In this document: positions 15,001 through 51,672 of the stretch, piece after piece | How positions within the stretch are numbered: the first letter of the stretch is position 1 | How the letters are laid out: every line of letters begins with the position of its first letter | DNA from: Candidatus Omnitrophota bacterium | Lineage (GTDB): Bacteria > Omnitrophota > Gorgyraeia > Gorgyraeales > Gorgyraeaceae | Direction: 5' to 3' | Assembly (NCBI GenBank): GCA_043821705.1 | Contig: JBDRCN010000045.1 | Span: 22,400-86,399 of the forward strand | Length of the DNA: 64,000 nucleotides | Notes under the pieces: generated by a model | What the model was told of the DNA's origin: nothing | The model's input: only the letters and a program-made list of their open reading frames with translations | Database searches by the model: none | Translations under genes and position numbers: made by a program

Positions 15001-18000
15001 TAGCAAAATATCTTTACTTAAACTAAAATCTATATTCATAGCACCAACACCAAACCACTTTCTGTAGAAACGACTGACATTACCGCTTAATCCAATGCTA
15101 ATATCATCTGCAATTTCAAAATCTGCATTTAGTCCTATCTTGAATTCAGATAAATATCCTGCAGGATCATCAATTATACTAGGATTTATAAATCCATTTA
15201 ACAATGCATAACCCGATATGAAAAGATTATCAATGTAATCCTGCTTAAAACTTTTATAGATCCCAACAGATGGCTTGGCATACCAACTACTTGTCCCTAG
15301 ACTTGGGTTTATAAAGATATTTGTACTAATGCCGGCTCCATAGCTCATATCCTTAATGCCAAACAAACCTGGATAGGCACGATAAGCATCTAACATCATT
15401 CCTAGATAACTATCGCTTCTCAAAGAACTATATTCGTTAGTTTTTATCAAATCATCCACCCAGCTACGATAATTTAATGGTACATAACCCCATAGACTTA
15501 AACCCATATCAGTAGCATATTCACCTTTTTTGTCCATTGTTGATGCTGAACTTGCCATAAACATATTGCTTTCATGGGTTGATAATTGAAAGGTATTAGA
15601 GGATATCTTAATCGGCGACCAGCTATCGCCCAAAGGATTTACAATGCCCACATCTATCTTTGGATATAGATGTTCATAATCAAAGAAACCTTTAATATTA
15701 ATTTCATTGATAAAAGGCTTTTTCTCTGGTTCTACATCTTTGTTTTCCTCAAATATCTTCTGGGGCTTTTGTGGTTCTTCTTTTTTCTCAGAATCTCCAT
15801 GGATAATATTATTCCAATAATTATGGTCCATCCATATTTTGCCCTCTTCATCCATTGACCACTTGGCGTAATATTCATATCCATCATCATATAACTCCTC
15901 TAACTCCTCCTCTGTATAGAGACGCGTAAATCTATATGTCTCTAAATCTAACTTACAGCTTGTAATTCTCTCTACTTTTGCAAGCAATATAGAGCTTTCC
16001 CGACATCTAGTTAAAAGTTCAAAAAAGCTATGTCTTCCAAAAAACGAGTCTGCAATAGTAGCCTGATCTTCTCTAATATTTATCTGGCCATGATCACAAT
16101 CGTAATCTTTAGAACCTAAACTTTCCGGCCAAGAAGAATCATCGTTAGACCATAAATGAAACGGCAGATAATCATCTTTAGAATCTGCGTGATGAAATAT
16201 TTCATGATGGATGCTTGGGGTGCTGGTAATAAATATTCTTGAAAACCATTTTCCAAGACTAAAATTGTATTTATCTGTTTTCATGTTATAAATATAAGGA
16301 TTAACAACTATTTTTACAGTGATGCAATTTTTTAAAAAAGCCTCCGGATATACTGAAAGGGCCTCTTTTATTTCTAAAAGCTTCCTCTCTAATGTTTCCA
16401 GTTTATACCTTCCACTTATAAGCCATCTATTAGAAGAGCCTCTCAAGAAAGTTACTAGCGCATCAAAAAATCTTGGTATATCAACTTCAAATCCAAATTT
16501 ACTACTGATATCGCGCACATGGGAATTAATCTTTTTCTTAATGATTAATACTATATCAGCATCTTCCTGTAACCTTTTGCTTGCAAACTCTATAGCCATG
16601 CTATTCTTTTCAACAGCTTTTGACACAAATTCCTTATCGCCTCTGAACTCCATATGATAAATAATGCTTGGCGCTTGAACGACTATATCTAGAATAAACT
16701 CTTTATCATTTTTCAATCTATCGCTTGCAAACCGTATTGTAAAAGTATTTTTCACAGCCGCAGCAAAAACTATATTCTTATCATCCTTAAAACTATCGCT
16801 TACATATTCTAAGACTTTGGGGTTTTTTTCTATAGCCTTTAATACAAATTTTTTATTATCTATAAATAGAGAACCTACAATAGCTTTTTGGTCAAACTCT
16901 ATCTTGTCAAGCAATTCTTCCCAAGTTACTTTAAAGGTTACTCCATCTTCTGAAATGAGTTCTAATTGGGTGTATTTGGGGAAAAATTCAGCTTCTATGG
17001 TGGTGTCTTTTGTAAATTCTATTACTGTAATTCTACCCTCTGCTCCTATTCTTGTTTTAACCTCTTTTATGCAGTTTGGATATGGTTTACCATCTACCTC
17101 AATACCTGTAGAGCCATATCTAGTTAATTCATCAACTGATGCTAGATCTGTAAAGAGGGTGATGTTTGTAAGAGGGAGGATTTGTTTAGTGTCAATGTGA
17201 GGCTGAGTTTCATCAGGGATTAGTGAGCCAGCGTCTTTTGGTACTATTGATTTCTCTACAGGTACTAATGTTTTTAAAGGTGTTAGTTTGATGTGTGTTA
17301 TATAAATTTGGCCTATTCCTTTATTTGACAATTTCTGGCTTCCATACTTTTTACCACTATAAAAACGTATTTCCTTAACACTTGTCATATCCAAATCATT
17401 AGGTATATATATCTTTTTCCAGCCATCAGCGGATACATTTATTACAAAGGAAGGATGAAATATTTCTTGCCCATCAGATGTTATAAAGCTTATGCCGATT
17501 TCATTGAGCCTTTTATCAAGCTTGTAATGGAAAGAATCAGGCACTTCTTTTACGTATAATTCTAACTTACATCCAGTAAAATCAGCTGGCAAAGATGGGA
17601 AGCTTGTCGAAATATCACAACATACAAAATTATCATCTTTATACCTAGCAAGATCGCTCATATAATGTCCATACTTGCTGCTTTTGTACATTCCGTACTC
17701 CTCCCCAATGAATACGTTCATATTGCCATTTGTACTTATAGCTATTTCTACATCAAAACCGAATGAACGCGCAAGAACTTTCCTCCCGGGATAAGTTTCT
17801 AAGAAACGAATACTCTTCATTGTTTTCTTAAAAGCCATCTTATATATTATCCCTTTTATTTTTTTACCTTTTTTCTCAAATTCAGGAATTACACTAAGTT
17901 TATACTCTTTTACGTTCTGTTTTTTGCCTTCTTTGCGCTCCTTATCTATTAATTCTAAAGCAGCATCTTTCATGCTGGAATATTTAATTTTTTGAACTTG

Positions 18001-21000: not shown

Positions 21001-24000
21001 ATGTTCAATCTTAGAATATGAACCTCGAAACTCTGCTTCTATAGGCTTTGAACGATTTGATAAATCCTTCGTTAGCGTTTGTCCAGTAGAAATTACTGGT
21101 ATATCTTGTATCTTTTTTGGTTTTAGTTTAGCAGTTAATATATCTTTAACTAATTCATCTTCCTGCGGTTGTATGATTGATTCTATTTCCTCTAGCTCTA
21201 AAGTCCCTTCTATTGCCTTGCCTTTACCTTTACTGGGAAAAAGACTTATTTTCTCACCAGAGCTGTATTCTCGTCCGTCAAGGGTTATGTCTTTTAAGAA
21301 AGCAACGATCCTTTCTCCATCTTCATCTCTATTGCCTATATCTACATCAATACCATTATAGAGCTTTACCCTTGTCGTATCTTCTAGCTCTCTTAAAAGG
21401 TAAAAAGGTTTTTTATTTTTTAAGACTGTATTATATACATATTTAATTGGCTCTGGAGGCAGGTATGAACGTCTTGGTTTCTTTAACTTTTTCACAGTAG
21501 AAACAGTTCTTGTCTCCTCCATATCTAACGCCCTTTTTACTTCATAACTTTTCCCATCTTTTTTAAGAGTTAGTATTAACTGATCTCCAGAATAAAACTG
21601 CTCCTGTCCTAATATATTTATCCCTTCTTCTGGGATGTTTTTGAAGGTAACTATTATTGTCCCATCAGCTTGCGGCTCGCTTAGATCTACCTTATCTCCT
21701 ATAATAAATACCTGTGCTTCGTTGTTATACGTAAAGGTAATCTCTTTTACTCCAAAGAAACTCTCTACATCATCTATAGCAGTAATTTCAACTGTGAAGC
21801 CAGGAATAAGAGGTTTTATTTCATCAGGCATCAGTGAACCAGAGTCGGATTCTTCTTCAATAATATCTGTTGGCACAAAAATAATCTTATCCTTCTCATA
21901 TTTAACCTTTACATATTGATTTCTCTCTTTTACAAATCCTATCTCGTTTTCTTCTGGCCACAGAGTCTTTTTATTTATCTTAGCTCCTTCCTTAAATGAC
22001 ACTGCCCAATCTTCATCGATATCCACCTCGGGTTGATTCCATACGTATAGCTTAAATTCCTCACCTTTTCTTACTATACCAGAAGTATTGAGCTTGTTTT
22101 TCTCTTTCTCAATCAATCCTGCTAGAATTATAGCCTTTTTAGCCATAGACTCCATTCCGCTTCTAGGGCCTTCTCCGTAATATGCAAAATTAAAGGCTTT
22201 CTTATAATAAATAGCAGAGTTCTTTAAACATGTAAGAGGATCTAAATCTTCTGGTAGATTTAATATCTTTCCAGCAGAAAAGACGTAACCCATGCTCTCT
22301 GGATCAAGCGGCTGTTTTACAGTCCTATCTCCTAAATAGAGATATATATCTCCTAATTCACTAGATGCTGTTATAAATCCTGGATCCTTCTCTAATGCCT
22401 TTTTGAATAAATCTATTGTTTCTAAAATATAATCGGGTTCCAGATTCTCTCCGTAAATTATATTATGTTTATAAAGTTCTGCCAGATTGGCATAGCCCCA
22501 GACAGAGCCTGGATCTTTTTCAATGGCCTTTTTTAAAAAATCTATTTTCTCTGATTCTTTTTTTAAGCCTACTGATGTGCTTCTTGCATATAAAATATAG
22601 GAAGATAACAGAGCTTCAGGTGTACCTATTCTAATCTTTCTATGTAGTTTCTTTTTAAAATGACTCTCTTTTAACTGCAGATATTGCCCAGGTTCAATTT
22701 TTTTGTATAGCCCGCCAGAACCTTCTAACGGAAAAGGCTCGCTTATGCCTACTCTAGGATTTGATATATCAACTATTATAGATTTGTTATCAGAAAGTTT
22801 GACTAAACTAGCTACATGATATACACCTTCTTGTACTCCACAGGACCATGTAACCTCAATAGGATCTATAGATAAGCCTGCCAATCTACCTAAGATTACA
22901 AAAAGCTGTGTAGAACCTACGCAATTAGCTGAACCAATATAGCCTTTGTCAGCATGTTCTTCATTGAAGACCTTGGTAAGAAGAGCTGGGTAATCACCTC
23001 TATCACTCTTAACTGCATTTTTTATAATTTTCGATAAACTATTAATCCTTTCTAATCTTGGCATATCTTTTATTTTTTCTAACTCATAATTATTATAAAA
23101 ACTAGAAATTTGCTCTACTATTTCCGATTGTTCTTCCAAAGAATATCCTAATTCTTCAATAGCCCCAGAAATTACTTTTTCTATATTAGTTTCAGGTTGA
23201 TTTTCTTCTCCATAACCACCTAAATCCCCCTTGGACCCTTCATTAAGGTCTAATTTCAATCCTTCACCCTTAAGCGCTGCTCTATTGTCTACATCTACAA
23301 TTAGAGATTTAATATATTCACTATCCTCTATAGATAAAAGAAAAATAGGTAATTTAATCCCCTCTTCTTCCAGGTGTTTCTTTATTGCTTCCTTCTGACG
23401 AGAAGGTAACGCTACTATAGCTACTTCATTAGGAGCAAGACGGCTAACAAATTCTTCCTCAAGAAACTCTTCTAGCTCGCCATTCTTCAGTGAATAAAAG
23501 CCTCCTTGAATAAAATGTCTACCATCGAATAAAACCGGAACTTGAATAGGAGCTTTCTGTGAATCTGTTTTGCGAGATTCCTGTTGACTAACTTTTATTA
23601 TATTCCCATCTTTATCAAATGTTACGTCAAAACTTATGTTTGCTAAAAGCATGGCAGTCCCAAATAAAGCCCCTCCTCCACCGCCAAAGGTAAATGTAAA
23701 GGTGTCTTCGCTGAGTCTAGCGGCATCATCTTCAGGTGCATCAATGCTGCTTGTATCCTTAGATTTAGGAGCAGATATTTCTTCAGTAGAAGTCTTGGTT
23801 TTTGGAGCTTGTTTGGAAGGTTCTGGTTCAACATCTATTACAAGCATACCAGTATCATTGTCTTTCTCGATACTAATATCTATCTTTTCTTTTCGAGCTA
23901 CTGAGTTAAATCTCTTTTTAAAATATTTTAATTTATCCTCATCCTTATTAAAATTATGTACGAGTAATATCCTTCCTTTAGGTTTTACTATTCGAAGAAT

Positions 24001-27000
24001 ATCTTTGATGCAGTCATCTATTTCTCTATCTCCTTTCAAGTGTTCAAAAAACCCACTTATGCTCATCTTGGTAATACTGTTGGGCTCTATCTGCTTCATG
24101 CTATCGCCATCATTTTCAATAATATTTACATTATCAGGAATAGCTCCAAGAGTAAGCCCCCAGGCATAAAGCTCTTTTAATAGTTCCGGCACATAGAGTG
24201 GGCTTGCATTTAAAAGAAAATTTTCGTAAGTTGTGTACATAACATCATTAAATTTTCTAAGATTGTTAAAAGCAGAAAAAAGCGCTGTTGTAAATTGAAT
24301 ATTGGTTTCTGATATATCAATATAAAATACCTCTTTTGCATTATAGCTAAAGTAGGCCGCTACTGCATCAGGGCTCATTCCCATCCCAGCGTCACAATAT
24401 GCATCCTCCTTGCTTACATCAAGAAGGTCCATAACATCTGATGCGCAATAATCACGGCTCCATTTAATAAAATTATATCCATTGTCAATACTAGATCTGT
24501 CAAAAGCTTCTACCATAAGATTATCAAACCAGCTAAATTGTCTCATCACGTCTTTTTTAATACGCCCAATATTATCTTCGGTAATTTTTTCATCTCCGAT
24601 TAGATCTGTTACATATGACCACATTTTTTCGGATAATATAGAAGGGCCTGGAGAATTTTTAACTATACGGAGCCGCATAGACATATCCATATCTCTATCT
24701 GACATATCATCTTTAGGAAGTTTATAAGATGCTTTTAGAAAATCATATAGTGAAGCTTCTGGATATAATGATAGGTAGATTAATATAGATGTTAGATATG
24801 CTTCTCTTTCATCAAGACTTGCCATATATCCTAACATTGTATCCGGGATATTCGCTTTATCTCCTCTATTAGACTGCTCAATGTGTGCTAATTCATGGAC
24901 TATTGATGTCATCCTCAAAGAGCTGCCAATAGATACAATAAACGGGACTTTAAAATTTCCTTTAATACCAAGCGCTTCTTTAAATTTATTAAAAGACTGT
25001 TCATTCTCCTTTTCTATAATAAAACCACCTGCAGCATAGCCATGTTCAAGTATCAACCAATCTTTCAGATCAGGATCTTTAAGTGCCTTGTTTTTTTCAT
25101 CATCAGAAATTACTAAAACTTGTGCATTTAAAGATTCGTCGCTTATGTCTAAATTAATAAGAACTTGCTTAGGGATATTTTGTTCATCAATATAATCTCT
25201 CGCAATAAAATCATCTCTTCTAGATTCATCTTCGGAAATAGGTACGGCCTTCTTTAATGCGTCAATAAACTCTCCATCAAATATTTTTAAAAGATCATCA
25301 ATGCTATAAGAATTTTTCACTTTGACCTTACCTTCTAGGTCTTTTCGTATACTCTCATCTTCTTGTTTTAAAAGATCAGATATAGTAAAGATTTTACTTT
25401 CTAAACCTTTAATATGTTTATTTCTCCCAATAATAAATCTCTTAACTCCTTCATCAGCTGCTATAATTAAACTTGCGTTTTCTAAATCACCGCGTACGAT
25501 CGGATAGGCAGATTTTTTATTTTTTAGATCTTCTTTTAAATCATCATCAATTTCAATATATTGAATTATAGATTCTAGCTTGTCTAAGCTAATATCTTCC
25601 CCTTGAGATAATGAGCCAATATCTTCTACTGGCAGATATCCGCGCGAACTTACATTAACACCAGAGATATTATTTTTTGACGCAAGAATAGATAATACTA
25701 TATCCATTTCAGGTCCTCTTAATTGACCGTCACCGCAGATAGTAAGAATATTATATGTATTCGATGAAGGATTTTGTTCAGGTAAATCATTAATGGTATT
25801 CTGTAGTTCTGACTTATCTCCAATTATAGGTATTGTTATCTTAAACGTACTTCCTTTGTCTTTTTCAGACTCTATCCATATCTGGCCATTATGTTCATCT
25901 GTTACATATAGCCTACTTTCAGCTAAGCCAAGGCCTGTCCCACCTTTTCTCTTCGACCAGTTAAGCCCAAACGCCCTTTGGTAAGTCTGGCCTTCTTCCT
26001 GCTCTAGCCCATCTTCAGGGAAGCCTGCTCCATCATTATAGATTTCTAAGACAATACTCTTCTTGTCTTCCGATAGCTTAGTAGTGATAGTAACATTTTT
26101 GATCCCCAGGTCTTCACTTAACTGTTTGTTATTTGTTAAAATATTACTTAAAACACACAATATCATTTTCTGGTTTACCTCTGTCATGGGGATAGAAGAT
26201 AAATTAAGAGTAAGAGTCACGCCTTTTGTTTCAAAATCTTTAAGCATCTTATTGGCTAGATCGTTTACCAATGCATTTAGATCCGTAGGTTCTTTTTTAA
26301 GAGTTCCTCCTAGCCAATCCAATCTTTCATTAAGGACATTTATATTTTCTTGTACAGGAGCTTTGATATCTTTTCGTAATAGGTCAAGGGCTGCTATAAC
26401 ATAGTCAGAACTCTCTTGGGAAACCAGATAATTTTCTAATTCTTCAACTTTATTATAGATAATCTTTGTTTTTTCAAATATATCATTTAAACTATTCTGC
26501 CAAGTATTTTCTACGCCTATCTCTAATTCTTTACTAGCATCTATAGGCGCTGATTTAGCCAGATCGTTATAACTAGAAACTATATCAGTAATGTCTTTAT
26601 TTATCTCATCAAGAGCTGTTATTATCTGATCAGGGTCTTTCCCGTATGTAAATTCGCTAATAGAATTTAAGGCAGGATTAAAATTATTCTTAATGTCGTA
26701 GATCGTTCCATTATGCTCCATGCTTCTTAAGGCAATATATGTCTTCAGGAATTCTTCATTGTCCAACATGGAAGATATTGGCGCAAGAAGACCTACCTTT
26801 TCCTTTATTAAAGATAGGTCATTATTGCTTTTTCTTATTATATTCAGGTAAGTAGCAGCAATGTGCATTCCTGCAGGACAGGCTTCTAAGATCCCAGAGA
26901 CTTCATTAATATCATAATCTTCACCTGACAATAGGATATCTTTAATCAACTTTAGAGATTCTTCGAAGTCTCCGTCTAGAGCAAGGTTCATAGCTTGTTC

Positions 27001-30000
27001 AGTTAAACGAGCTTCTTTAGTCTGAAACTTTTCTTCTACTTCTATAATAAAAGCTGTTTGACGATCTATTGTGCCCTTATTATCTTCTACAATATTTATT
27101 TTTATATTACCCTTTTCTGCTATTGAAATGATCTTATTTTTAAAGTCTTCTACTCCTGAAGGAAAGTCGTATACTACCAGTATTCTGCCGCCTGGCTTAA
27201 CTACTCTAAGCATTTCTCTTATACAGGCATCTATCTTATCCTGGCCACCCTGTTCTTTAAGCCAAGTAAACAACTCTGTTACGCTTAATTTATCTACGCT
27301 GCTAGTCTCTATCTGAGACATATTAGATGCATCACCATGTATAATTTCAGCCTTATCAGAAATAGGATGCATATCGTTAGGCACAAGGCCCCAGGTAAAG
27401 AGCTCTCTTAAAGCTAACGAACCAGAAGCCAAAGACCCTTTCTCATTCAGAAGATTAAAAATTATATCGCTACCTTGAATTTCTTCCAATTGTAAGAAAT
27501 TTTTCCAATTGCTTAAAAAATATTTAGCAAGCATCACATTAGATTCTGAAATATCAAGATAAATTGCTTTTTCAACATTAAACATATTAGCTGCTAATAA
27601 AGTATATAGCCCTGAACCTCCTGCTAGATCAAGATAGACTTCTCCTTCATCGAGTTCCAGCATACTAAATACACTAGCTGCGCTATGAGTACGTGTATCC
27701 CTAACTTGATTTAATGGATTTTCTGTATATAGTTCAAATCTTTTTATCATCAGATCATTGAACCAGCTAAATTTATCAAATACGTCTTGCTTAATATCTA
27801 AAATATTAACTGGGGTAATGTTAGAATAATTTTTAGACTTCATAGTTTTGCCTATTTCAATCCACATGGATTTTTCTACTACTGCAGGGACAACCTCTCC
27901 ATCAACTATTCTATTTTTCATCTTATTTTGTATATAATCATCCGTTAAATCTGGATCGCCTACAGAGATCCTTATAAAATCCTCAAAAGAAATCTCAGGA
28001 TAGAGAGATCTTATTATCAGCATTGGTGTTAAGAATGCTTCTCTTTCTTGTAGATCCCTGACATATCCATCTGCACCAATAACAGATGTAGGCTTTTCAC
28101 CTCTATTACTTTGTTCAACATGGGTCAATTCATGAAATGCTACATTGATATTGTAATCTCCTTCCACAAGAACTGACAGAGGGAGATTAAAATTGCCTTC
28201 TATATTAAGAATAGTTTTTACAGCTTCCCATGTATTAGAAGATTGTTCTGATACAGCAAATGCTCTATGGGTAGGTTCTATAGTCCCTTTTGGAAGCTCT
28301 TTTATCAGTTCTTCTTTTTCTTCTTGAGTAATAATTACGATCTGGGTATTTTGTGTATTATCCATAAAAACAGCGTTCAATAAAGCTTGAGCTTCTGCTG
28401 TTTTTTCTGCTGGGATAATCTCCCCCATAATACCTGGCAAAGAACTTACTCTTCTGGAAGGTTTTGGCGTAAGGGTTTCTTCAACAGCTACTATGCCTGT
28501 ATCAAATTCTTTCTTAGACGAAGAGCTTATTTCCCCGCTTGCGCCATCAATCTTTGCATACTTGGTCTCATTCTTCTCTTTATATTTAAATATAATATCT
28601 CCATTGCTGGAGATGGCTATATCCTTATTGCCTTTCATCTTTTCTGGGCTTGTCTTGACCAACTCAATCATAGTCTTTCTTATACGATTAAACCCATCCG
28701 ATATCTTAAAATCTTTCTCATCTTTTCCATAAAGCTTTGCTAACTGAGGTGCGACCTGCTTATTATACAGAGCTATCATCTCCTTATCAGCTGTTGTAAG
28801 GATGTTCCTTAGCTTATCAGTCATGCTAGATATAAGCTCATCTATAGGCTTACGCTTACCTGAAAGAAGGAATTTATAGTTTTCTTCATCTGTTTCTTGG
28901 GATGAATAAGGAGAGATCACAACATATGAATATCCACTTTCTTTAAGGAGTTTTGTAAGGCCTCTTGTATGAAAACCTCCTGAAACAAGTGCAGCTACTT
29001 TTGCCCTTCTTTTATTTATCTCGCTTGTGGCATTATCATACATCGTATTATCACGCTGATAAGCAAGATCATAGAACTTCTCAAGCGGAGAGAATTTATC
29101 GTCTATAATTGAAGCGTCATAATTTATCGGATAAGTTATGGAGTATTTTTTAAGGCCTTTTTCTATGAATCTCTTAAAAAATGCCATTCTAAACCCATCT
29201 TTATCTGCAAAATATCTATCAAGCTCTTCATTGGATATCTTCAGATTAAAGAAGCCCTCTAAAAATGTGATATTTCGTATGGCCTTTGTAAGGATCAATT
29301 GATCATTATGTGTCGAGATACTGTTCTTAAGATCAAATGAGAGTTCTTCTATTTCACGGAAAAGTTTTAGTGAATCGAGGGAATTGACTTTTGTCAGATA
29401 ATCAACGAAGTGTAAGAGGTTTGGATATTTACTTAACTCTTCCTCTTTTAAGTGTCTCCTGGATAATTCATCTAGATAGCTATAGAAAGAAAATGGGGAG
29501 ATCTTCTTATCTTTAAAGAGAGAAAGCTGAGCAACTAGCTTTTCTATACTAGAATCATCTCTTTTAGACATTAAAGCCCTCTGCAGGCCTTCCAGTATCC
29601 CCTGGGACTCCCCCATCACCTTTTCCCGATCTACTTCTTTTTCTAAAGCCATGCTTTTTCGTAAAAGCGCTATATTTTGGAACTTCTCTTCGTCCAGTGT
29701 TTCATTAAAGTTCCATAGATAATCTAGATATTCATTTGTCTCTATGGAACTATTCTGATAAGAAACTTCTTTTGAATCTAGCTCTAATAACTGTGCAGAA
29801 TATATATGGGTCTTTAATCTATCCAATGCATTTTTAATATTTGAGATCAATGCTAGAGATGGTAGGTTGAACTTCATGACCCTGTTAAATTCGATTATAT
29901 TTTCAAAATATATCTCTTTAGTCTCCACACCCCATATTGCCAGGTCAGGATACTTAGTAATAGAGAGATATTCTTCTCCTGTCAGCTCGCCTGAATCAAT

Positions 30001-30555
30001 AAAAAGACGCGCTGTCTTTTCTCTGATCTGGGCATCCGGAAAACTCGACACACTAGAAGTATCGACCTCACCTTCAGCGCCTTCAGAACAGACTAGATCT
30101 AAATTATAATCTTTTATTAAGATCTCAAGAATGGATGCAAGATTAAGCTCTGCCTCAGGATTAGCATGGAGATCTTGGATATGGACAATAAGAGGTTTTT
30201 TTTCTGCTCCTTCTACCCTAGGAGCTTCATAGACTTCAATTACCTTACCTAAGCTATCTGGGATATATATATTAGATAGATCTTTTAATATATCTTTCTT
30301 TATTTTAGCAGCTATATGGGTCCTATCTGTATTTCTGCTGTCTTGGGGTTTCTTTTTATCAGAAAATATCTCTTTTTTCTGATTTATAGTATCTATCCTT
30401 TCTTTTTGGATAGCTTCATAATTAGGGCGTTTATTTTTAAATAAACTCCTATTGGAGGGTGCAGGATAGCATACACTTGTAAAGAAAAATGTATGCACTA
30501 ATACAAGAGAGATTATCTTCTTATATATATTATTTCCATGCCCAAAGCTTCCCAT
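1..30555 (-). CDS. Giant multidomain surface/secreted protein, at least 10,185 aa, 3' end beyond the window. Mosaic of DUF4157-like zincin + SAM-MTase modules, HATPase_c, transglutaminase-like, HExxH, CHAT-like, papain-like and beta-barrel-like regions, plus many internal repeats.
   Basis: By-eye translation of the reverse complement finds no in-frame stop from ATG 30555..30553 down to base 1; several blocks were spot-checked. ATG is preceded by AAGAGG 8 nt upstream, and an in-frame TGA lies 18 codons further upstream. The N-terminus MGSFGHGNNIYKKIISLVLVHTFFFTSVCYPAPS is signal/anchor-like. The ORF track lists no long ORF on either strand across 30 kb, as expected if one edge-truncated ORF occupies it. 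Confidence 0.85.
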   Translation of the reverse strand, partial: MGSFGHGNNIYKKIISLVLVHTFFFTSVCYPAPSNRSLFKNKRPNYEAIQKERIDTINQKKEIFSDKKKPQDSRNTDRTHIAAKIKKDILKDLSNIYIPDSLGKVIEVYEAPRVEGAEKKPLIVHIQDLHANPEAELNLASILEILIKDYNLDLVCSEGAEGEVDTSSVSSFPDAQIREKTARLFIDSGELTGEEYLSITKYPDLAIWGVETKEIYFENIIEFNRVMKFNLPSLALISNIKNALDRLKTHIYSAQLLELDSKEVSYQNSSIETNEYLDYLWNFNETLDEEKFQNIALLRKSMALEKEVDREKVMGESQGILEGLQRALMSKRDDSSIEKLVAQLSLFKDKKISPFSFYSYLDELSRRHLKEEELSKYPNLLHFVDYLTKVNSLDSLKLFREIEELSFDLKNSISTHNDQLILTKAIRNITFLEGFFNLKISNEELDRYFADKDGFRMAFFKRFIEKGLKKYSITYPINYDASIIDDKFSPLEKFYDLAYQRDNTMYDNATSEINKRRAKVAALVSGGFHTRGLTKLLKESGYSYVVISPYSSQETDEENYKFLLSGKRKPIDELISSMTDKLRNILTTADKEMIALYNKQVAPQLAKLYGKDEKDFKISDGFNRIRKTMIELVKTSPEKMKGNKDIAISSNGDIIFKYKEKNETKYAKIDGASGEISSSSKKEFDTGIVAVEETLTPKPSRRVSSLPGIMGEIIPAEKTAEAQALLNAVFMDNTQNTQIVIITQEEKEELIKELPKGTIEPTHRAFAVSEQSSNTWEAVKTILNIEGNFNLPLSVLVEGDYNINVAFHELTHVEQSNRGEKPTSVIGADGYVRDLQEREAFLTPMLIIRSLYPEISFEDFIRISVGDPDLTDDYIQNKMKNRIVDGEVVPAVVEKSMWIEIGKTMKSKNYSNITPVNILDIKQDVFDKFSWFNDLMIKRFELYTENPLNQVRDTRTHSAASVFSMLELDEGEVYLDLAGGSGLYTLLAANMFNVEKAIYLDISESNVMLAKYFLSNWKNFLQLEEIQGSDIIFNLLNEKGSLASGSLALRELFTWGLVPNDMHPISDKAEIIHGDASNMSQIETSSVDKLSVTELFTWLKEQGGQDKIDACIREMLRVVKPGGRILVVYDFPSGVEDFKNKIISIAEKGNIKINIVEDNKGTIDRQTAFIIEVEEKFQTKEARLTEQAMNLALDGDFEESLKLIKDILLSGEDYDINEVSGILEACPAGMHIAATYLNIIRKSNNDLSLIKEKVGLLAPISSMLDNEEFLKTYIALRSMEHNGTIYDIKNNFNPALNSISEFTYGKDPDQIITALDEINKDITDIVSSYNDLAKSAPIDASKELEIGVENTWQNSLNDIFEKTKIIYNKVEELENYLVSQESSDYVIAALDLLRKDIKAPVQENINVLNERLDWLGGTLKKEPTDLNALVNDLANKMLKDFETKGVTLTLNLSSIPMTEVNQKMILCVLSNILTNNKQLSEDLGIKNVTITTKLSEDKKSIVLEIYNDGAGFPEDGLEQEEGQTYQRAFGLNWSKRKGGTGLGLAESRLYVTDEHNGQIWIESEKDKGSTFKITIPIIGDKSELQNTINDLPEQNPSSNTYNILTICGDGQLRGPEMDIVLSILASKNNISGVNVSSRGYLPVEDIGSLSQGEDISLDKLESIIQYIEIDDDLKEDLKNKKSAYPIVRGDLENASLIIAADEGVKRFIIGRNKHIKGLESKIFTISDLLKQEDESIRKDLEGKVKVKNSYSIDDLLKIFDGEFIDALKKAVPISEDESRRDDFIARDYIDEQNIPKQVLINLDISDESLNAQVLVISDDEKNKALKDPDLKDWLILEHGYAAGGFIIEKENEQSFNKFKEALGIKGNFKVPFIVSIGSSLRMTSIVHELAHIEQSNRGDKANIPDTMLGYMASLDEREAYLTSILIYLSLYPEASLYDFLKASYKLPKDDMSDRDMDMSMRLRIVKNSPGPSILSEKMWSYVTDLIGDEKITEDNIGRIKKDVMRQFSWFDNLMVEAFDRSSIDNGYNFIKWSRDYCASDVMDLLDVSKEDAYCDAGMGMSPDAVAAYFSYNAKEVFYIDISETNIQFTTALFSAFNNLRKFNDVMYTTYENFLLNASPLYVPELLKELYAWGLTLGAIPDNVNIIENDGDSMKQIEPNSITKMSISGFFEHLKGDREIDDCIKDILRIVKPKGRILLVHNFNKDEDKLKYFKKRFNSVARKEKIDISIEKDNDTGMLVIDVEPEPSKQAPKTKTSTEEISAPKSKDTSSIDAPEDDAARLSEDTFTFTFGGGGGALFGTAMLLANISFDVTFDKDGNIIKVSQQESRKTDSQKAPIQVPVLFDGRHFIQGGFYSLKNGELEEFLEEEFVSRLAPNEVAIVALPSRQKEAIKKHLEEEGIKLPIFLLSIEDSEYIKSLIVDVDNRAALKGEGLKLDLNEGSKGDLGGYGEENQPETNIEKVISGAIEELGYSLEEQSEIVEQISSFYNNYELEKIKDMPRLERINSLSKIIKNAVKSDRGDYPALLTKVFNEEHADKGYIGSANCVGSTQLFVILGRLAGLSIDPIEVTWSCGVQEGVYHVASLVKLSDNKSIIVDISNPRVGISEPFPLEGSGGLYKKIEPGQYLQLKESHFKKKLHRKIRIGTPEALLSSYILYARSTSVGLKKESEKIDFLKKAIEKDPGSVWGYANLAELYKHNIIYGENLEPDYILETIDLFKKALEKDPGFITASSELGDIYLYLGDRTVKQPLDPESMGYVFSAGKILNLPEDLDPLTCLKNSAIYYKKAFNFAYYGEGPRSGMESMAKKAIILAGLIEKEKNKLNTSGIVRKGEEFKLYVWNQPEVDIDEDWAVSFKEGAKINKKTLWPEENEIGFVKERNQYVKVKYEKDKIIFVPTDIIEEESDSGSLMPDEIKPLIPGFTVEITAIDDVESFFGVKEITFTYNNEAQVFIIGDKVDLSEPQADGTIIVTFKNIPEEGINILGQEQFYSGDQLILTLKKDGKSYEVKRALDMEETRTVSTVKKLKKPRRSYLPPEPIKYVYNTVLKNKKPFYLLRELEDTTRVKLYNGIDVDIGNRDEDGERIVAFLKDITLDGREYSSGEKISLFPSKGKGKAIEGTLELEEIESIIQPQEDELVKDILTAKLKPKKIQDIPVISTGQTLTKDLSNRSKPIEAEFRGSYSKIEHEINNTKNPETRKLAQEEFERNLPKLQEGVEYILTVKFVKEMPGEYWQVEMKELPPKPLKLTGTLSELKYKIEKIEDPRIKRYLKNNTPGSERENYVLSITYSNGRPTVQFKEISKGSNKDKIIIRDLTSTDSLYKGKTAYLSIDLTNMEVSGTFSEIRRKIDRLSDEDLKEYLAGALDRAKDLTKKENIKYILYFDVEESTPQNIGSEYTTSIDIRKLSPGFLRIEGDVSEIKTKIRNVKDTDLKRRAERILNDTPGLRRNVSYILTIDVRETEKESIYEGKIKEFPPLRFTHFSIYQGYPREFKKDIEELGDPRVKKYLHEILINARGLKSDKVYNFTLKIKETESQKIGTDYTKASMIEEKDAESIVIMGTVLELKTSIANIKNTALKEFARELLKESKFIKDDIEYTLYVGTTREGIKGEINEKYPESIKITGTLSEIEAKVKKLKNPRLRKEAESTIDRYWMKHDLRWVLTIDVQIKKEKDEYSFKSKVEPINKVDLSKNFTIVFDGKKYSLVANKDIIWRKNIKNIDRKKYVKVREVVNGKKKRTIWVKKTSIDTAVKYLRKKDLEDTYFKISELYEGVYVPIYIYQDIISSKKKKGTTTPEPKESDSGSIMPRDEPTHPIIDIEQFFPLTNIRLFTDLASVDELTIYGSTGIEVDGKPYPNCIKEIETRAGPNGEEIKVIEFTKDTTIDTSKGREVFQAGTQLELILSEDGAGYRVKSIGMSFQGSSHMIDSEIVNIKDPEIKKLAKEKFEKNLSKLQKGVEYILSVKFVKEMKGEYWQVEMKELPPDRISFTGTLSELKTQIDNIEDPRMKQYAKAKLDYFVNNALSMGDKIGLEEGVKYSFGIVVTDEDISYTVPFLLDEGEVGVNCAMQTFGDKIASTPQEIVFDYKKRLYAWIDEAESATATRSGTISRIRRNARSIKSPLLRKMTLDLIKDRSIFVASDDDNIIHTLTVKIRKIKFEHTVVPIWSLTYDIVPQLPELINFNGTLDRISAQVQKIKYSSMKDAALELIDKERKEGKKQNVKEYKLSVIPEFEKKGKKIKGIIYKMAFKKTMKSIRFLETYPGRKVLARSFGFDVEIAISTNGNMNVFIGEEYGMYKSSKYGHYMSDLARYKDDNFVCCDISTSFPSLPADFTGCKLELYVKEVPDSFHYKLDKRLNEIGISFITSDGQEIFHPSFVINVSADGWKKIYIPNDLDMTSVKEIRFYSGKKYGSQKLSNKGIGQIYITHIKLTPLKTLVPVEKSIVPKDAGSLIPDETQPHIDTKQILPLTNITLFTDLASVDELTRYGSTGIEVDGKPYPNCIKEVKTRIGAEGRITVIEFTKDTTIEAEFFPKYTQLELISEDGVTFKVTWEELLDKIEFDQKAIVGSLFIDNKKFVLKAIEKNPKVLEYVSDSFKDDKNIVFAAAVKNTFTIRFASDRLKNDKEFILDIVVQAPSIIYHMEFRGDKEFVSKAVEKNSMAIEFASKRLQEDADIVLIIKKKINSHVRDISSKFGFEVDIPRFFDALVTFLRGSSNRWLISGRYKLETLERKLLEIKEALSVYPEAFLKNCITVKIVVNPYIYNMKTDKYNFSLGKWFSRIFITSTPSIHHEIFHHADSKDDYLPFHLWSNDDSSWPESLGSKDYDCDHGQINIREDQATIADSFFGRHSFFELLTRCRESSILLAKVERITSCKLDLETYRFTRLYTEEELEELYDDGYEYYAKWSMDEEGKIWMDHNYWNNIIHGDSEKKEEPQKPQKIFEENKDVEPEKKPFINEINIKGFFDYEHLYPKIDVGIVNPLGDSWSPIKISSNTFQLSTHESNMFMASSASTMDKKGEYATDMGLSLWGYVPLNYRSWVDDLIKTNEYSSLRSDSYLGMMLDAYRAYPGLFGIKDMSYGAGISTNIFINPSLGTSSWYAKPSVGIYKSFKQDYIDNLFISGYALLNGFINPSIIDDPAGYLSEFKIGLNADFEIADDISIGLSGNVSRFYRKWFGVGAMNIDFSLSKDILLKANAWGRTPFTSSGLNYSIDPEDQYQWGGGISLNTDYGEANFNFMKIGEFWQPDGDGHTLDRIEAGISLKLGKILGGLIGGSLLNNLISTDNINVSYLHRIDDYNVIDKPSIEEDSEIISEGYIIPEGSGQEFFYQVTKDGIKVTSSDGEEFTSESTNLVTALVPFIFGAKKAMTPIITFLDKDRNVLGVGNLGDMIDFWTRSGLDSEGAPTNTKLLEVLKRIQEKKTPEPEKEPDSGSLVPDGIIQPQPETEQIFPFSNIIPFVDLASIDKLTPIDSYTGIEVDGKPYPNCIKEVKTRIGAEGRITIVEFTKDTTIEAEFFPKYTQLGLVLQEDGIGYKVTELIKSDLSKDYIIVYDGQKHSLIHKDDVEYELDGWSEDKSLYVLGVRMVNGKIKERVLIKKSSIDSATDLIKKQDIAKSPYEISELKYQVYVSKEMKYKIDRGSAKEKEPQKTKDITGRSDIPVDEDFDFIVSPSTEGILSPSSAGISLSERDTEKEKSYYMELARDDPKRAMEDMDKYIDKPWAKEIFKVMLIEGKIVGDTFIVKPFLAKWISKSWAPEILDLIYVFNENLSRHYKIFIDQPYGLEFLESKVIFAPFEAIDGGSKLIFGGNDRGQLTDFIFATLTRNSDFIEVLKRSKNPIVKKLCGLYDWGVKNVPLKSQEDALWTTLLLDKIVKNNLSFEKAYNIAKDPSLLLKNIIEIKRQPDYLGSFSITNGLKMICLRAIWDINYLHDSSDTIRFRSVETFDSETLYTLMVYGENEVFTSTFNGLFTRMLNKMKKEGLTAKTLFKKVDYNKFRVMIKLCASYNRLNEFLNTVTKDEKIHLLKRFVRIKSDDKDLLSQAVIIADTFSMIQDKEVLKVLQETIKEEYHKVLKKDNKEARVIYGLLSGLFSEKAVLSTDWFKKMSKKYKLQDITKLPTKNLFNEDEVSIQRFYSYNDEDGKASYNSLLNQYKGKKAWQIKDKDSYTLIISRPTNGKRIELYVNKPEFEDKGQAAIDKALKGKKVHIEVHMGHSYHVNKTIKRINPEAELVVLRSCGGYNEISDILDKTPQAHIISTKGTGTMYVNDPLLYLLNTEILKGKDISWPAFWEKAEDRLGHNGAFGNYIAPHKNLGVMFIKAYKRLLREEESKESDSGSIMPDETHPHIDTKQILPLINITFFTDLASVDGLTIYGSTGIEVDGKSYPNCIKEVDNPDGEEIIAVEFTKETYIDTPQGKEFFPTGTQLELIRSEDGVRYKVRSINRRFQGSYSSIKDKINNIKDARMRKEAEKVFNKKLPKLQKGVEYVLDIKLTKTMKGEEWQVEMKEIPPQTLKLTGTLSELRVKIENIQDPRVKEYAEETLDHCLKEIRPLLEAGVTYTIGILIGLNLDLKGKAIDSPGPDFTPWYSNEEWERSKVQWLNSHGSPSMILEPTEPCDIGFKYTQLRWINETNIPDKIELTGTFSEIKAKAKKIKSPLIRALFFEHFYKHLNIIDAEYDLSIISARGDNGEFNGISMEWRSSLSSETHYEDIKSYLTSKDTSSVTLVDAYRKTLERIKRRLNSKNITIDEAVKLKKEKDIIERNIVIEEINKCYNEAKLNATGLDYKEAANAYKRASKIIEERLNNKTISADEKKDLKKYKTKAEIAILKAKINGLIKEINDLGIFDTLLGKRYPIKQEALKKIDKLLEYREIKGSERKELKELRKLMKGKLPSPKDIKRRFEEYRIQKSIDNTKFAKEKKVKYRTANKDFTQPLSPIKVDLSRYYTIVFDGKKYSLVPNTAVKAKWSKGYISANKVVNGKKGKKVWVKKSKIDDAKYYETKDLIRYSPYRISKVYKGVYIPAYISMLMLISPNPLEILSDDWTNRELFIKAFGLEAFGFIQDKIDKAASSDEGLTQKTLIKLIWQLKEFVKKEQPDTGSLMPEKDADRIDLPSTDLTSVEAEISGISLADIDDVESFFGVKEITFTYNNEAQAFIIGDKVDVSEPQADGTIIVTFRENGVNILGLGTFYPENQLKLTLKDDGKYSVEVIRGSDKEEKARLNYFKEEIYLQVLDIENLGIEVSLLGISDELDFEAIDEWLKTDRTTPGRDEIRLEYLYQKVHAVKEQLLRYPKIFLKNSNFKKIAINPKYVGHSSNQEVTNYIKSRFWPTTMTLSNYQYFHHELFHIMDFNDDYIPYIWTNDDSSWPESLELEDCAGGHGQGSFKEDQAAIAESLFNFSYPLFSEILEKCKKSKVLLAKVERMTSCKLDLETYRFTRLYTEEELEELYDDGYEYYAKWSMDENGKIWMDHNYWNNIIDGDSEKKEEPQKPQKILEESKDRKLEKHAAPEPEEEPKHSYLPPEPIKYIYNTVLKNKKPFYLLRELEDMTKVKLYNGIDVDIGNRDEDGERIVTFLKDITLDGREYSSGEKISLFPSKGKGKTRKGVLEPEEIKSITQLQKDKLVKDISMELEEELEEDPIEIFTEQILAKDLLSSSKDIETEFRGSYSEIKHEIGNTEDAEIKKVAKEEFEKNLPKLQEGVEYILTVKFVKEMPGESWQVEMKELPPKPLKLTGTLAELRVKIEALEDSRMRQYAKEYLDYYKVSKRLFYNAEEGIKYEFGIMTLDKGCPNNIQESSGRDGSYGMSEGWVKFELRNAGYKIAEAPEEIGMDFKKRQRGWLNELEIPEERFIGTITEIKEQAKKIKSPLLRHYFFRYVSISFAFSRENLKYDLTLRAKKELEKHPDTFYSWRFYSKCSIIPEQKIFTGSLKEIGEQVKKLPHPMMKKSVLDLVNKTRAKAGGKDFRYTLIASYECKDKKDKWLLRCESTIKNVAPLIFIEKATMRNIGSIVSAVGRMNIFIDGVSQYYSAGGIYSEYNYVDFVFDKPLDLTGCELQLDVRKTPSGTNFKSKGRLKEIAISFVTSDGKEIFDSSFKIDVSTDGIKKIYMPSNLDLTSVTKIKMYTGKRYGENEILLNEPDCTINIKKMKLIPVSTDKKEGQPKKNSDTGLIIPEPDSGQTFPFPQHSYPTGITATISGISLADIDDVESFFGVKEITFTLSNGEAQAFIIGDKVDLSEPQADGSIILTFKNIPEEGINILGQVKVYRGNQLELTPKGDGKFSIEVVRKGSIAESKEPEQRDTESIMSRPELDQNIQSPSSLGTEIMSGVPIGDNYTPETVPDEGYMPVTFGGGGVGEVKMISDKEINLRMNGITVSFNESNSEITWDKMTGKRTITVKKDILDEDGEVVFEARNGIEITPDKESIYKIAFTAPSNDLTATISGISLADMSGTVDKGIKVLSLASNEEARELIIGDDVIKLDKESINGKLVYKIGKDRVYIPGEKEPLKKEDRLELTLNEDGKYDVKIVRLGEAINNILVQHQTKGDEQTRPTVYDPPTEAEPSNDTKYPNIHYNAQGPFDLSLPCTIFAALSMFDKIGILKDVEKNNGLSTYGDIDIYAANITYSSDQSLFPFDKLRDYMNQQAELYGSDVRFEMEETLSYKEKGRVTLEERLADTNIQKYGMILIIDNHGPHSVHITSFSKETNEVTYYDSIGLDGAENIKKLPLEQFKDILYLQGRDPVNYPKYYNTIVPVMEGKPVEDYTSKELVEKLLDKEITKEDIEKLQQPKGEMIKRVKTLPEERLLKKKLDKILEKGPVLIESSPLKDEKGDHHWLYGDRKIESYTALFGLFRYCSDNLFSWDMDKVGVDNSAYFYSEEDGYAPLSDPEVYLIDEKGGGVNYIIREKSVFYVATDKTNKVVAFGFSLYQKDLGYEYLLIQEGHEEFEELKDLYNEETREAISKIEEKGKVFIEVFKEQLKHRAKYLEKLNKIGSEETKENYNKALEIINEAIDDNESSDAAKEFFKKKKIEIEEKLNELDEEKDTGSLIPDETQPQIDDELGNYIVSGVIGYATANLNDGAVDIETEIIELKDSKTGEEIILKEGKNCIIEDRGNVQTVVILEDINRNLTVGVVAIVTGNKITGRDNLKNNKVAIKAIVNELASDRRRSDDFYKTAGNLLINSLIENKKIIDTDMISTMIKGLENTNISSIQYAALGSVLIVALREIFYGASKHMITNQMKGDLISNLRAALNNPKIDNRKLYTISQIRKYVRITNASENLDADILTALSSVRQGDEGLNEDVFDKIMQNIAHIKSNREKIVLSMLEILEAPNLTNGTYELALSSINAKYDLGTMPEPLRKRLYSVSMRFLKSTSTDKATKGVFLILKRIYNELGPEEKIDLLFTFIDILNTSKETTEGSYWIYGILPDIDLGDITSEEKNKIIRGISKTGDTKAIIALFENETIQSGGFDSRTKNMVTKTVVGLCNNKDPETALLILNLSNIEISQKEKIVVFKSIIANIKSLSKLKEVLQKFKRQNMELNKEVKEIIVNATIDLFKYDPDHSSGIIYALELKKDDLAEDFVRAAISNIKKGDYGSVIAFHRVKSINNIQGLLEEDKKYIFKACIATLGDETIVDLRRSQHYLSNLIVDFYKTNPEFFKDVKSFPTKGHYLIVKYSNLTLTDIDNIQLQSYMGSQLERFTFPDMYYLIATLGIDLKKCRNEAQLGKEIAVRLNEFTKNAQDIKEIDLRKVLEKISIWMNVLHVRQFTLTEHESDNIRETFVKNLSNNSAYYLMALGKDHLYPTTIEAVYEKHIKDNQGFFQDNTIDPNRAYSYDFLMSLLDYGHFVEVFDKNEEYFISPIERPLDDMEKIAANVNRLKRPLDLIFSDNVPDSYQREIEKVIVSKYKKYYKEYKRTGDPIPVASIASIFARFDGRFITQDAIDMSNAIKDMGIKEKMVPTEDIFSDKKLTMLIVFDRGPLEPWIDIAASKYRDLRYNVEKVEIEKGRKYIVRRTVGGIQEIFVLTDYVPTIQYYFDNGITYNGRPVPEEKRIPIDVFMPRVHTGNSIGYLNYTKNLRSVAIVVVASCGGNKVINDQMEDIRTYYEKFGGAIFIGNIPHGRGKRNQEVAEKLEEVLLENKDNDKLSRESLVKDPNFEVSEGDIILDYVNNVDILPDPSTIFKEYIVSVFNTAGSFMGTFNVELD
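250..650 (-). other. CHAT / caspase-like His-Cys domain #2 of the giant protein
   Basis: RVHTGNSIGY...AIVVVASCGGNKV (about 340..425) mirrors domain #1. Confidence 0.35.
4380..4860 (-). other. Papain-fold (C39-like) cysteine peptidase-like domain of the giant protein
   Basis: SLPCTIFAALSMF (about 4801..4855), then GPHSVHITSF (about 4503..4527), then VTYYDSIG. Confidence 0.35.
8130..8720 (-). other. HExxH zincin-like module, copy B
   Basis: QYFHHELFHIMDFNDDY...DDSSWPES at about 8488..8577. Its tail at 8125..8340 is about 93% nt-identical to 15735..15960. Confidence 0.45.
11700..12100 (-). other. CHAT / caspase-like His-Cys domain #1 of the giant protein
   Basis: HIEVHMGHSYHVN about 30 aa before ELVVLRSCGGYNE (about 11850..11975). 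Confidence 0.4.
14650..15700 (-). other. Outer-membrane beta-barrel-like segment inside the giant protein
   Basis: Roughly 350 aa of alternating short amphipathic strands rich in G/S/N/Y, with aromatic strand ends (...AMNIDFSLSKDILLKANAW, ...NFNFMKIGEFW). Confidence 0.3.
15750..16330 (-). other. HExxH zincin-like module, copy A (duplicated roughly 200-aa module)
   Basis: IHHEIFHHADSKDDY...DDSSWPES at about 16120..16210. Module ends with a conserved ...YEYYAKWSMDE.GKIWMDHNYWNNII tail. Confidence 0.45.
22150..22650 (-). other. TPR-like repeats following the transglutaminase-like core
   Basis: KAIEKDPGSVWGYANLAELY / KALEKDPGFITASSELGDIYLYLG repeat pattern. Confidence 0.4.
22700..22960 (-). other. 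Transglutaminase-like cysteine peptidase core of the giant protein
   Basis: GSANCVGSTQLFVILGRLAGLSIDPIEV...YHVASLV...IVDISN fits the transglutaminase-like Cys/His/Asp pattern. Encoded about 22806..22935. Confidence 0.5.
23900..24450 (-). other. Class I SAM-dependent methyltransferase-like domain #2 of the giant protein
   Basis: CDAGMGMSPDAV (about 24361..24393) and LRIVKPKGRILLVHNF (about 23951..23995). Confidence 0.45.
24800..24950 (-). other. DUF4157-like HExxH zincin domain #2 of the giant protein
   Basis: Motif SIVHELAHIEQSNRGDKA (about 24850..24900), paralogous to #1. Confidence 0.5.
25850..26200 (-). other. GHKL / HATPase_c-like ATPase domain of the giant protein
   Basis: N-box LSNILTNN, G1 box YNDGAGFP, G2 box GGTGLGLAESRLY, then GSTFKITIP. 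Confidence 0.55.
27100..27700 (-). other. Class I SAM-dependent methyltransferase-like domain #1 of the giant protein
   Basis: Motif I YLDLAGGSGLY (about 27604..27634) and LRVVKPGGRILVVYDF (about 27170..27205). Confidence 0.5.
28050..28250 (-). other. DUF4157-like HExxH zincin domain #1 of the giant protein
   Basis: Motif VAFHELTHVEQSNRGEKP, encoded around 28096..28150 (minus strand). Confidence 0.5.
30455..30555 (-). other. N-terminal signal peptide / membrane anchor of the giant protein
   Basis: Positively charged KK followed by the hydrophobic stretch IISLVLVHTFFFTSV, then CYPAPS. Confidence 0.6.
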
Positions 30556-30667
30556 GCAAACGCCTCTTCTGATAATGATCCGGATATGCCTCCATATTGT
30601 CCTTCGTCATGGGAAAAGGGTTATCCAATAACGGAGGCAATATCCAGAGATCCTTCCTGTTTAAAGC

Positions 30668-30849: not shown

Positions 30850-31425
30850 TTATTTAGATAGGGTTATTGTTTTTTGGGATTGGTACTTTCCTTTGCGGTC
30901 AGAGTAGGTAGTGTCACACTCTTCCTGGGACTCAAAGAATATGATCTGGGCTATGCCTTCATTAGCATATATCTTCACCTGGGAGGCTCCTGTATTGGAG
31001 ATATCCATCGTTAAGTACCCCTCCCAGCCTGGTTCTAGGGGAGTGACATTGACTATGACACCACACCTGGCATAAGTGCTCTTACCAGTACAGAGCGCTA
31101 GTACGTTCTTAGGCATCTTAAAGTACTCTAATGACCTGGCTAATACAAATGAATTCGGGGGAATAATGCAATATTCCCCCGAATGATCTTCAAATAGATC
31201 CTTATTTATATTCTTAGGATCAAGTATGTCTTCTTTCTTGCCTCTAAACAATTTAAACTCATTTGAGAGTCTTATGTCATATCCGAAGCTAGAAGGTCCA
31301 TAAGATATCTTACCATCTCTTACTTGCTTCATCTGGAATGGCTTTATAATATCTTCTTCCAAAGCCATTTTTTTTATCCAGGTATCTGGTTTTATTGACA
31401 TAGTTTTAACACTTTGAATATCCAC
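30850..31425 (-). CDS. dcd: dCTP deaminase
   Basis: [14 protein letters not shown]...[36 protein letters not shown]. The true start is probably the internal Met MSIKPDTW at about 31401, giving an ATGA overlap with nrdJ. Confidence 0.8.
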
Positions 31426-39100: not shown

Positions 39101-39136
39101 CTTGTGTCATGTGTCCTGTGACTTGCAACTTGAATA

Positions 39137-41013: not shown

Positions 41014-41031
41014 GGTTCACGAATCACGATT
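40955..41031. repeat. Tandem heptanucleotide repeat array arranged as an imperfect palindrome (CGTAATY x4 ... RATCACG x4), batA-batB spacer
   Basis: cgtaatc cgtaatt cgtaatc cgtaatt cgtgatg cgcaatc ggttcac gcatcac ggttcac gaatcac. Confidence 0.8.
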
Positions 41032-42560: not shown

Positions 42561-42609
42561 ATTTAGATACTTACTTCTAATACCTTCTTAGTGCTTTTTA
42601 ACCCACTCT

Positions 42610-43542: not shown

Positions 43543-43566
43543 GAATTACGAATTACGCATTACGAA
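43493..43566. repeat. Tandem heptanucleotide repeat array in two opposed blocks (ACCGTGA x5 / TACGAAT x5), DUF58-moxR spacer
   Basis: accgtga accgtga tgcgtga accgtga ttcgcga tctgt tacgaat cacgaat tacgaat tacgcat tacgaat. Confidence 0.8.
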
Positions 43567-51639: not shown

Positions 51640-51672
51640 TGCGAATATAGCTTTCTACCCTATAATTGTCAA
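51640..51672 (-). promoter_or_regulatory. Sigma70-like promoter (TTGACA-17-TATATT) upstream of the ferredoxin gene
   Basis: The minus strand reads ttgacaattatagggtagaaagctatatt. Confidence 0.5.

Follow-up and report, generated by a model that had tools for sequence, protein, structure and literature searches.

The stretch analysed here (64,000 nt, henceforth the window) covers positions 22,400 to 86,399 of the forward strand of contig JBDRCN010000045.1, from the assembly GCA_043821705.1 of a Candidatus Omnitrophota bacterium. An initial annotation, made from the sequence alone, had described a transglutaminase-like cysteine protease core followed by tetratricopeptide repeat (TPR)-like repeats at window positions 22150–22960. 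Open reading frames of at least 60 aa around these positions are short (at most 177 aa) and nearly all on the plus strand. A six-frame scan that kept the frames running to the ends of the window showed, on the minus strand, a single open frame of 10,202 codons without one stop, going from position 30606 to 1 and running off the window, and it is inside this giant frame that the quoted triad peptide is present. Minus-strand coding is also suggested by the strongly negative GC skew over the first 48 kb of the window. The gene is partial in the window (1–30555, minus strand); it probably starts at the ATG at 30555, with the stretch AGAAGAGG 7–8 nt upstream, and codes for at least 10,185 aa, its C-terminus lying past the left end of the window. 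All residue numbers given below take the opening codon of the frame, and not the ATG, as residue 1.

The module that concerns us, a catalytic domain plus a TPR arm, occupies aa 2474–2760 of the giant protein (~22327–23187, minus strand like all the other parts of this gene). It begins with an N-terminal four-helix sub-domain (aa 2474–2531, 23014–23187), in which AlphaFold places helices at model residues 5–16, 21–37, 40–45 and 48–62, with a predicted local distance difference test score (pLDDT) of 90–97. The sub-domain is kept in the closest homologues (P0001, P0003 and P0004, see below), which match the query from residue 8–17 on. The range given by the initial annotation takes in the catalytic core and the TPRs and misses this four-helix part, up to ~23187. 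The alpha/beta catalytic core comes next (aa 2532–2661, 22624–23013), as indicated by the hidden Markov model (HMM) of the family, AlphaFold and Foldseek. The family HMM matches aa 2558–2673 with an independent E-value of 1.6e-35, and there is only one copy in the frame. GSANCVGSTQLFVILGRLAGLSIDP begins at position 22935, where the motif GSANCVG starts (aa 2558). The predicted nucleophile is Cys2562, in the motif S-A-N-C-V-G-S-T-Q (codon TGC, 22921–22923). The predicted general base, His2597 in Y-H-V-A-S (codon CAT, 22816–22818), is found 35 residues further on, and the predicted third triad residue, Asp2613 in I-V-D-I-S (codon GAT, 22768–22770), another 16 residues away. All three were assigned from family conservation and from their placement in the AlphaFold model, and all lie within a domain of ~190 aa that is followed by ~2.5 TPRs.

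The TPR-like arm (aa 2663–2760, 22327–22620) is formed by five helices, i.e. ~2.5 repeats, at model residues 194–207, 215–228, 233–249, 255–271 and 276–291 (pLDDT ~80–93). Pfam detects TPR_17 at aa 2691–2715 (E = 4.5e-9; 36.3 bits, the cut-off being 24.4) and, weakly, TPR_19 at aa ~2730–2760, and phmmer against the PDB sequences recovers consensus-TPR structures (E = 4.5e-19). With a family model above its cut-off and five confidently predicted helices, TPR repeats do follow the core, as first described. An extended AlphaFold model (aa 2470–2860) matches TPR structures in Foldseek and also, over 334 columns, menin, a protein in which a transglutaminase-like domain is combined with TPRs. This model is confident up to aa ~2760. 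The following 100 residues (aa 2761–2860, 22027–22326) are poorly predicted, as a helical continuation of uncertain structure (pLDDT 38–59) that has no Pfam match and may or may not be part of the module.

An exhaustive phmmer search with aa 2470–2685 against 1.84 billion cluster representatives (E <= 1e-3) gave 59 matches (best 2.8e-27), ~52 of them over the Cys/His/Asp core. Five sequences (P0007, P0014, P0015, P0020 and P0051) were set aside as compositional or coiled-coil similarities, matching only query residues ~34–75, many times over; the others align to query residues ~90–200, that is, the Cys-to-Asp core and the part that follows it. A word-indexed search found nothing with the single sequence and one match only with the family profile. 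Over 57 aligned domain copies the Cys is present in 55 and the His in all 57, while the third triad position is occupied by D in 45, N in seven, E in four and S in one, in sequences that are only 20–45% identical. The triad proposed by the initial annotation is, in effect, kept in the homologues. Near-invariance extends to the G and Q of A-N-C-x-G-x-x-Q, to the F of S-x-P-F and to a number of hydrophobic residues, and the window copy retains all the near-invariant positions G95, Q98, G108, V116, L135, S153 and F156.

Most of the homologues are stand-alone, exported-looking Planctomycetota proteins. The typical member has 300–600 aa, with ~130 N-terminal residues preceding the core and many canonical TPRs after it (TPR families are found by Pfam in 40–44 of 50 homologues). 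By a crude hydropathy test, 33 of the 49 homologues that start with Met have a signal-like hydrophobic N-terminus, several with a lipobox-like Cys. The named members come from Planctomycetota and Sedimentisphaerales and are labelled "tetratricopeptide repeat protein", and the gene neighbourhoods of two stand-alone homologues had nothing in common. The window copy has its closest relatives within large Candidatus Omnitrophota proteins, where they occur as modules (P0001, P0003, P0004 and P0006). One of them, P0001 (3,357 aa, partial), carries three tandem copies with the Cys at ~1884, 2294 and 2713, all with Asn and not Asp as the third triad residue; P0002 has two copies and the window protein one. 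A profile search of contigs with a seven-sequence alignment of the sub-family recovered three loci, all of them from Omnitrophota and none from the source genome.

The affiliation of the domain can be traced through these homologues. Transglut_core (PF01841) is the only Pfam family that recurs in their domain-only segments (22 of 36 at E <= 1, best 4.1e-6) and, TPR families aside, also the only one recurring in the full-length proteins (12 of 50 at E <= 0.01, best 2.2e-6). In seven out of seven inspected matches the Cys falls at profile position ~51–57, and the matches extending to the end of the profile finish with the Asp; judging from these alignments, the homology to PF01841 appears to be transitive and in a consistent register. 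There are two results that weigh against the assignment. The window copy itself gives no match to PF01841 at E <= 0.1 at any of three query lengths (2000, 581 and 211 aa, the last being the domain), so that the HMM check proposed by the initial annotation failed on this copy and the link appears only via homologues and structure. A direct search of the PDB sequences with the window sequence likewise returned TPR proteins only. Since both the Pfam and the PDB searches of the window sequence matched only TPR, direct confirmation is limited to this part of the module and does not extend to the transglutaminase part. With the family profile, the best PDB match was GdmF, an amide synthase of the arylamine N-acetyltransferase (NAT) family (E = 0.026), in an alignment that pairs up C, H and D.

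The AlphaFold model of the domain, built with the family alignment, has a pLDDT of 90.1 and a predicted TM-score of 0.88. In the model, Cys93 (Cys2562) is the first residue of helix 93–106, His128 (His2597) opens strand 128–134 and Asp144 (Asp2613) closes the next strand, 140–144. As modelled, this is the papain/transglutaminase-type topology, with the Cys at the N-terminus of a helix and two adjacent strands carrying the His and the Asp. The top Foldseek matches in the PDB were TglA of S. pyogenes (9crn, E 2.4e-4) and the putative cysteine proteases 3kd4 and 3isr, together with LapG, the transglutaminase 4xz7, PeiP and Rad4, and there were many NATs. Probabilities were 0.9–1.0 with TM-scores of only 0.3–0.45, and it is because of these low TM-scores that we take the window domain for a divergent member of the superfamily. 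Among the viral models of BFVD, the matches were NAT-type acetyltransferases, a phage transglutaminase and the pseudomurein endoisopeptidase of phage psiM2. Nearly all the Foldseek matches listed, from the PDB and BFVD alike, fall in the transglutaminase-like/NAT/LapG fold group, families that have been grouped in one papain-like cluster (PMC10318531). The E-values and the conservation rule out a chance motif.

Thus, on the basis of the homologues and of structure, the domain belongs to the transglutaminase-like/papain-fold superfamily (Peptidase_CA clan) despite the absent Pfam match, and in this respect the core had been correctly recognised at the outset. We consider established a transglutaminase-fold domain whose triad is conserved and correctly positioned, and its fusion to a peptide-binding repeat. 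The family resembles Transglut_core proteins (PF01841; PDB 3isr, 3kd4, 4xz7; TgpA) in its papain-type fold and in the placement and similar spacing of the triad, and the PF01841 matches of the homologues are consistent, from sub-threshold to significant. It differs from them by motifs of its own (A-N-C-L/V-G-x-T-Q-L, S-x-P-F and H-R-R-I-R-I-L-D), by the four-helix N-terminal sub-domain and by the obligatory C-terminal TPR arm.

Because protein families that share this core do different things with it, the nearest of them have to be weighed as models for the module. NATs and GdmF were the most numerous Foldseek matches and have Cys-His-Asp on the same core fold, which, along with GdmF being the best profile match in the PDB, could be taken to indicate an N-acyltransferase, whose triad would transfer acyl groups from acyl-CoA to amines. 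Nevertheless, it is only the shared core that aligns. The second and third domains of NATs are absent, and the core runs directly into TPRs that stand where domains II and III would be. Nor does any homologue match the Pfam NAT family, Transglut_core being the sole recurrent one, and with neither this match nor the three-domain architecture, membership in the NAT family was rejected. Given that the NAT-specific domains are missing and that many homologues look exported, to where acyl-CoA is not available, acyl transfer of the NAT type is less likely, and we rate it as quite improbable.

A different precedent is provided by SirB1/YchA (COG2912; PF13369, i.e. Transglut_core2, plus TPR_9), in which a transglutaminase-like domain is likewise followed directly by TPRs. 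One homologue is actually named 'regulator of sirC expression with transglutaminase-like and TPR domain' in IMG. If this shared architecture, found in E. coli YchA, or the alignment of menin with the extended model were the better guide, the transglutaminase fold and TPRs would be a non-catalytic scaffold that only binds a partner, as in SirB1/YchA, menin, Rad4/XPC and FBXO21. What speaks against it is that a Cys kept in 55 of 57 copies and a His kept in all of them, at 20–45% identity, are hard to explain without catalysis. YchA, for its part, has Ser at the Cys position (in a single short, non-significant hhalign stretch), while the family described here keeps the full triad, and, as a further difference from YchA, most of its members have signal-like N-termini. 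This near-absolute conservation of Cys and His makes a purely structural role highly unlikely. As for membership in SirB1/YchA, it was rejected: PF13369, which E. coli YchA itself matches at 2.5e-44, was not recurrent in 36 homologues, and an hhalign comparison between the family profile and E. coli YchA gave a probability of 0.9%.

BTLCP/LapG (PF06035, MEROPS C93) is closer in the kind of protein involved. LapG, a transglutaminase-like enzyme with Cys-His-Asp that works in the periplasm, is among the structural neighbours of the window domain (4fgo, 4fgq and 4u65; Foldseek E 5e-3 to 1e-2, TMt 0.44), and it acts on a giant protein, reportedly cleaving a giant adhesin (PMC3032545). TPRs are absent from LapG, and the window domain sits inside the giant protein itself. 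There was no PF06035 match, and the likeness to BTLCP/LapG is at the level of the fold only, so this membership was also discarded. The LapG parallel bears on another possibility, namely that the module cleaves its own giant polypeptide, or sister giants, to release functional parts, a role suggested in the literature for the C39 and S8 domains of Omnitrophota giants. Post-translational cleavage of Omnitrophota giants is an open proposal in the literature (bioRxiv 10.1101/2023.11.21.568195), and the module recurs in several large Omnitrophota proteins, at times in 2–3 tandem copies. Yet most family members are small stand-alone proteins of Planctomycetota, with no evident giant partner, and no cleavage-site motif was identified, for which reasons self-processing seems to us rather improbable. 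Membership in peptidase C39 was rejected as well, since neither the 10,202 aa nor the homologues match PF03412 and no C39 structure is in the Foldseek top 50.

The rest of the giant protein offers few landmarks. Besides TPR, the only Pfam families matched over its 10,202 aa were Methyltransf_11 (a S-adenosylmethionine (SAM) methyltransferase at aa ~975–1145, E 4.9e-7), HATPase_c (aa 1485–1593, E 5.9e-14) and DUF4116. The first two lie together at ~25825–27680, and DUF4116 is present three times at ~16750–16857 (E 9.1e-24 overall, best stretch aa 4584–4619). The ~5,500 aa from 4700 to 10202 had no Pfam match at E <= 0.1. A Kyte-Doolittle scan (window of 19, threshold 1.6) detected a sole strongly hydrophobic segment in the 10,202 aa, IISLVLVHTFFFTSVCYPA, at aa 31–49 (30460–30516), a predicted N-terminal signal peptide or membrane anchor. 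Close to this end of the protein, aa 112–594 (~28825–30270, minus strand) are 28% identical to aa 52–514 of P0036, a 5,883-aa metagenomic protein that likewise bears the transglutaminase-like module. This region matches neither Pfam nor the PDB sequences, and may therefore represent another conserved module of these giants that has escaped annotation. Otherwise, the module is all that the window protein and its large Omnitrophota relatives have in common.

The source fits a gene of this size, giant genes being known from this phylum: the NAD synthase (NadE) encoded in the window is 100% identical to a protein of a Candidatus Omnitrophota metagenome-assembled genome, and the following 100 matches that bear names all belong to Omnitrophota. 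Giant multi-domain proteins have been described in Omnitrophota (West-Roberts et al. 2023, bioRxiv 10.1101/2023.11.21.568195; 2026, bioRxiv 10.64898/2026.06.07.730766), and the window protein is one of their kind: it comes from an Omnitrophota metagenome-assembled genome, exceeds 10,000 aa, starts with a hydrophobic anchor and carries scattered enzyme domains, with Methyltransf_11 and HATPase_c being the domain set reported as 'Module 1'. The proteases published for these giants are of the C39 and S8 types, and in this respect the window frame is different, since Pfam detects neither. A transglutaminase-like domain is mentioned in neither of these two publications.

As to where the window protein would act, its hydrophobic segment near the N-terminus and the many homologues that look exported speak for an extracytoplasmic site. 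Against this location count the residues that follow the segment, which are Lys/Arg-rich, and the co-resident domains, since the methyltransferase, HATPase_c and, in P0006, an FHA domain are typically cytoplasmic. The first two need cytoplasmic cofactors and are thus an odd fit with a signal-like N-terminal segment. The initial annotation had gone further and, invoking other peptidase-like domains together with this one, proposed an attack on the cell wall or on surface proteins. Pfam found no other peptidase in the 10,202 visible aa, no finding of the analysis supports a specific cell-wall target or points to surface proteins, and the neighbouring domains are those just mentioned.

The proposal has nonetheless some precedent. 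PeiW and PeiP are transglutaminase-fold pseudomurein endoisopeptidases, and by analogy the module could be a weapon of predation, an endo(iso)peptidase displayed by the giant protein and directed at the cell wall or surface layer of its prey. PeiP (8z4f) and the psiM2 enzyme are among the Foldseek matches, the giant protein and 33 of 49 homologues have a signal-like hydrophobic start, and predation and cell-wall degradation have been proposed for the Omnitrophota giants (bioRxiv 10.1101/2023.11.21.568195). But the PeiP matches are weak (E 1.4e-2, TM 0.2–0.3) and rank under NATs and generic transglutaminase-like proteases, and Pfam found neither a cell-wall-binding nor a glycoside hydrolase domain in the 10,202 aa. 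The normally cytoplasmic nature of the SAM methyltransferase, HATPase_c and FHA domains in the window protein and its relatives is also at odds with a role outside the cell. All in all, we judge predation by this module to be unlikely.

The reading that we favour, and that we find reasonably probable, is that this divergent transglutaminase-like domain, with its intact Cys2562-His2597-Asp2613 and a short, directly fused TPR arm, would be a thiol acyl-enzyme catalyst working on amide bonds of proteins or peptides. From the conservation and placement of the triad we infer that the domain is probably catalytically competent. In the mechanism envisaged by analogy with the superfamily, the TPR arm would select a protein or peptide substrate and hold it in its groove, and His2597, oriented by Asp2613, would activate Cys2562, which would then attack the amide carbonyl of the substrate and give a thioester intermediate. 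The thioester would be resolved by water, with a protease, isopeptidase or deamidase outcome, or by an amine, producing a transglutaminase cross-link. The chemistries of this fold are in fact varied, including those of proteases, isopeptidases, transglutaminases, deamidases and N-acyltransferases. For this reason, of the cysteine protease originally announced, the superfamily and its triad stand, and protease is left as only one among several activities. The initial interpretation is, in sum, partly supported: it called the fold correctly, and the function that it proposed is unproven.

Elsewhere in the window, no tRNA and no Rfam RNA were found. A ribonucleotide reductase large subunit of 1,605 aa (31406–36223, minus strand) is interrupted by intein sequence, with Hint_2 at aa 101–144 and Intein_splicing plus a LAGLIDADG endonuclease at aa ~591–1014; its C-terminus has a TSCPD domain. 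There is also a complete Bat/MoxR-type operon (36405–44604, minus strand), made up of a TPR and SH3 protein, BatD, a TPR protein, two VWA/BatA-like proteins, DUF58 and a MoxR AAA ATPase. A STAND/AAA_16-type NTPase gene (51669–52796, minus strand), with nSTAND1 and KAP matches, lies between a transporter and a FAD oxidase. Other genes code for a dCTP deaminase, an M48 peptidase, an AddA-like helicase, a DD-carboxypeptidase, a NAD synthase (NadE) and a histidine kinase.

While the superfamily and the type of architecture are known, what is new here is a distinct family, missed by current models and annotation, that is found in Planctomycetota and Omnitrophota and embedded in the giant proteins of the latter. 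Proteins with the module are annotated as "TPR protein" or "hypothetical", no NCBIfam model matches it and PADLOC finds nothing. For a specialist the surprise is limited, as this is another divergent branch of a very large and well-known superfamily. However, the giant Omnitrophota proteins are mostly unannotated, and the two publications on them leave open whether they undergo processing and in what way they act. The module adds to them a confidently folded and probably catalytic element that annotation has overlooked, no Pfam or NCBIfam model reaching the window copy. The most far-reaching possibility, a speculative one that we deem unlikely, is that it represents a previously unrecognised active transglutaminase-fold family of the Planctomycetes-Verrucomicrobia-Chlamydiae (PVC) group and Omnitrophota, which in the giants would cut the polypeptide into working pieces, or would covalently cross-link or anchor it, by a transglutaminase reaction, to the envelope of the predator or to the surface of the prey. 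If that were true, Cys2562 would be the first concrete catalytic residue for the maturation or deployment of the giant proteins of Omnitrophota.

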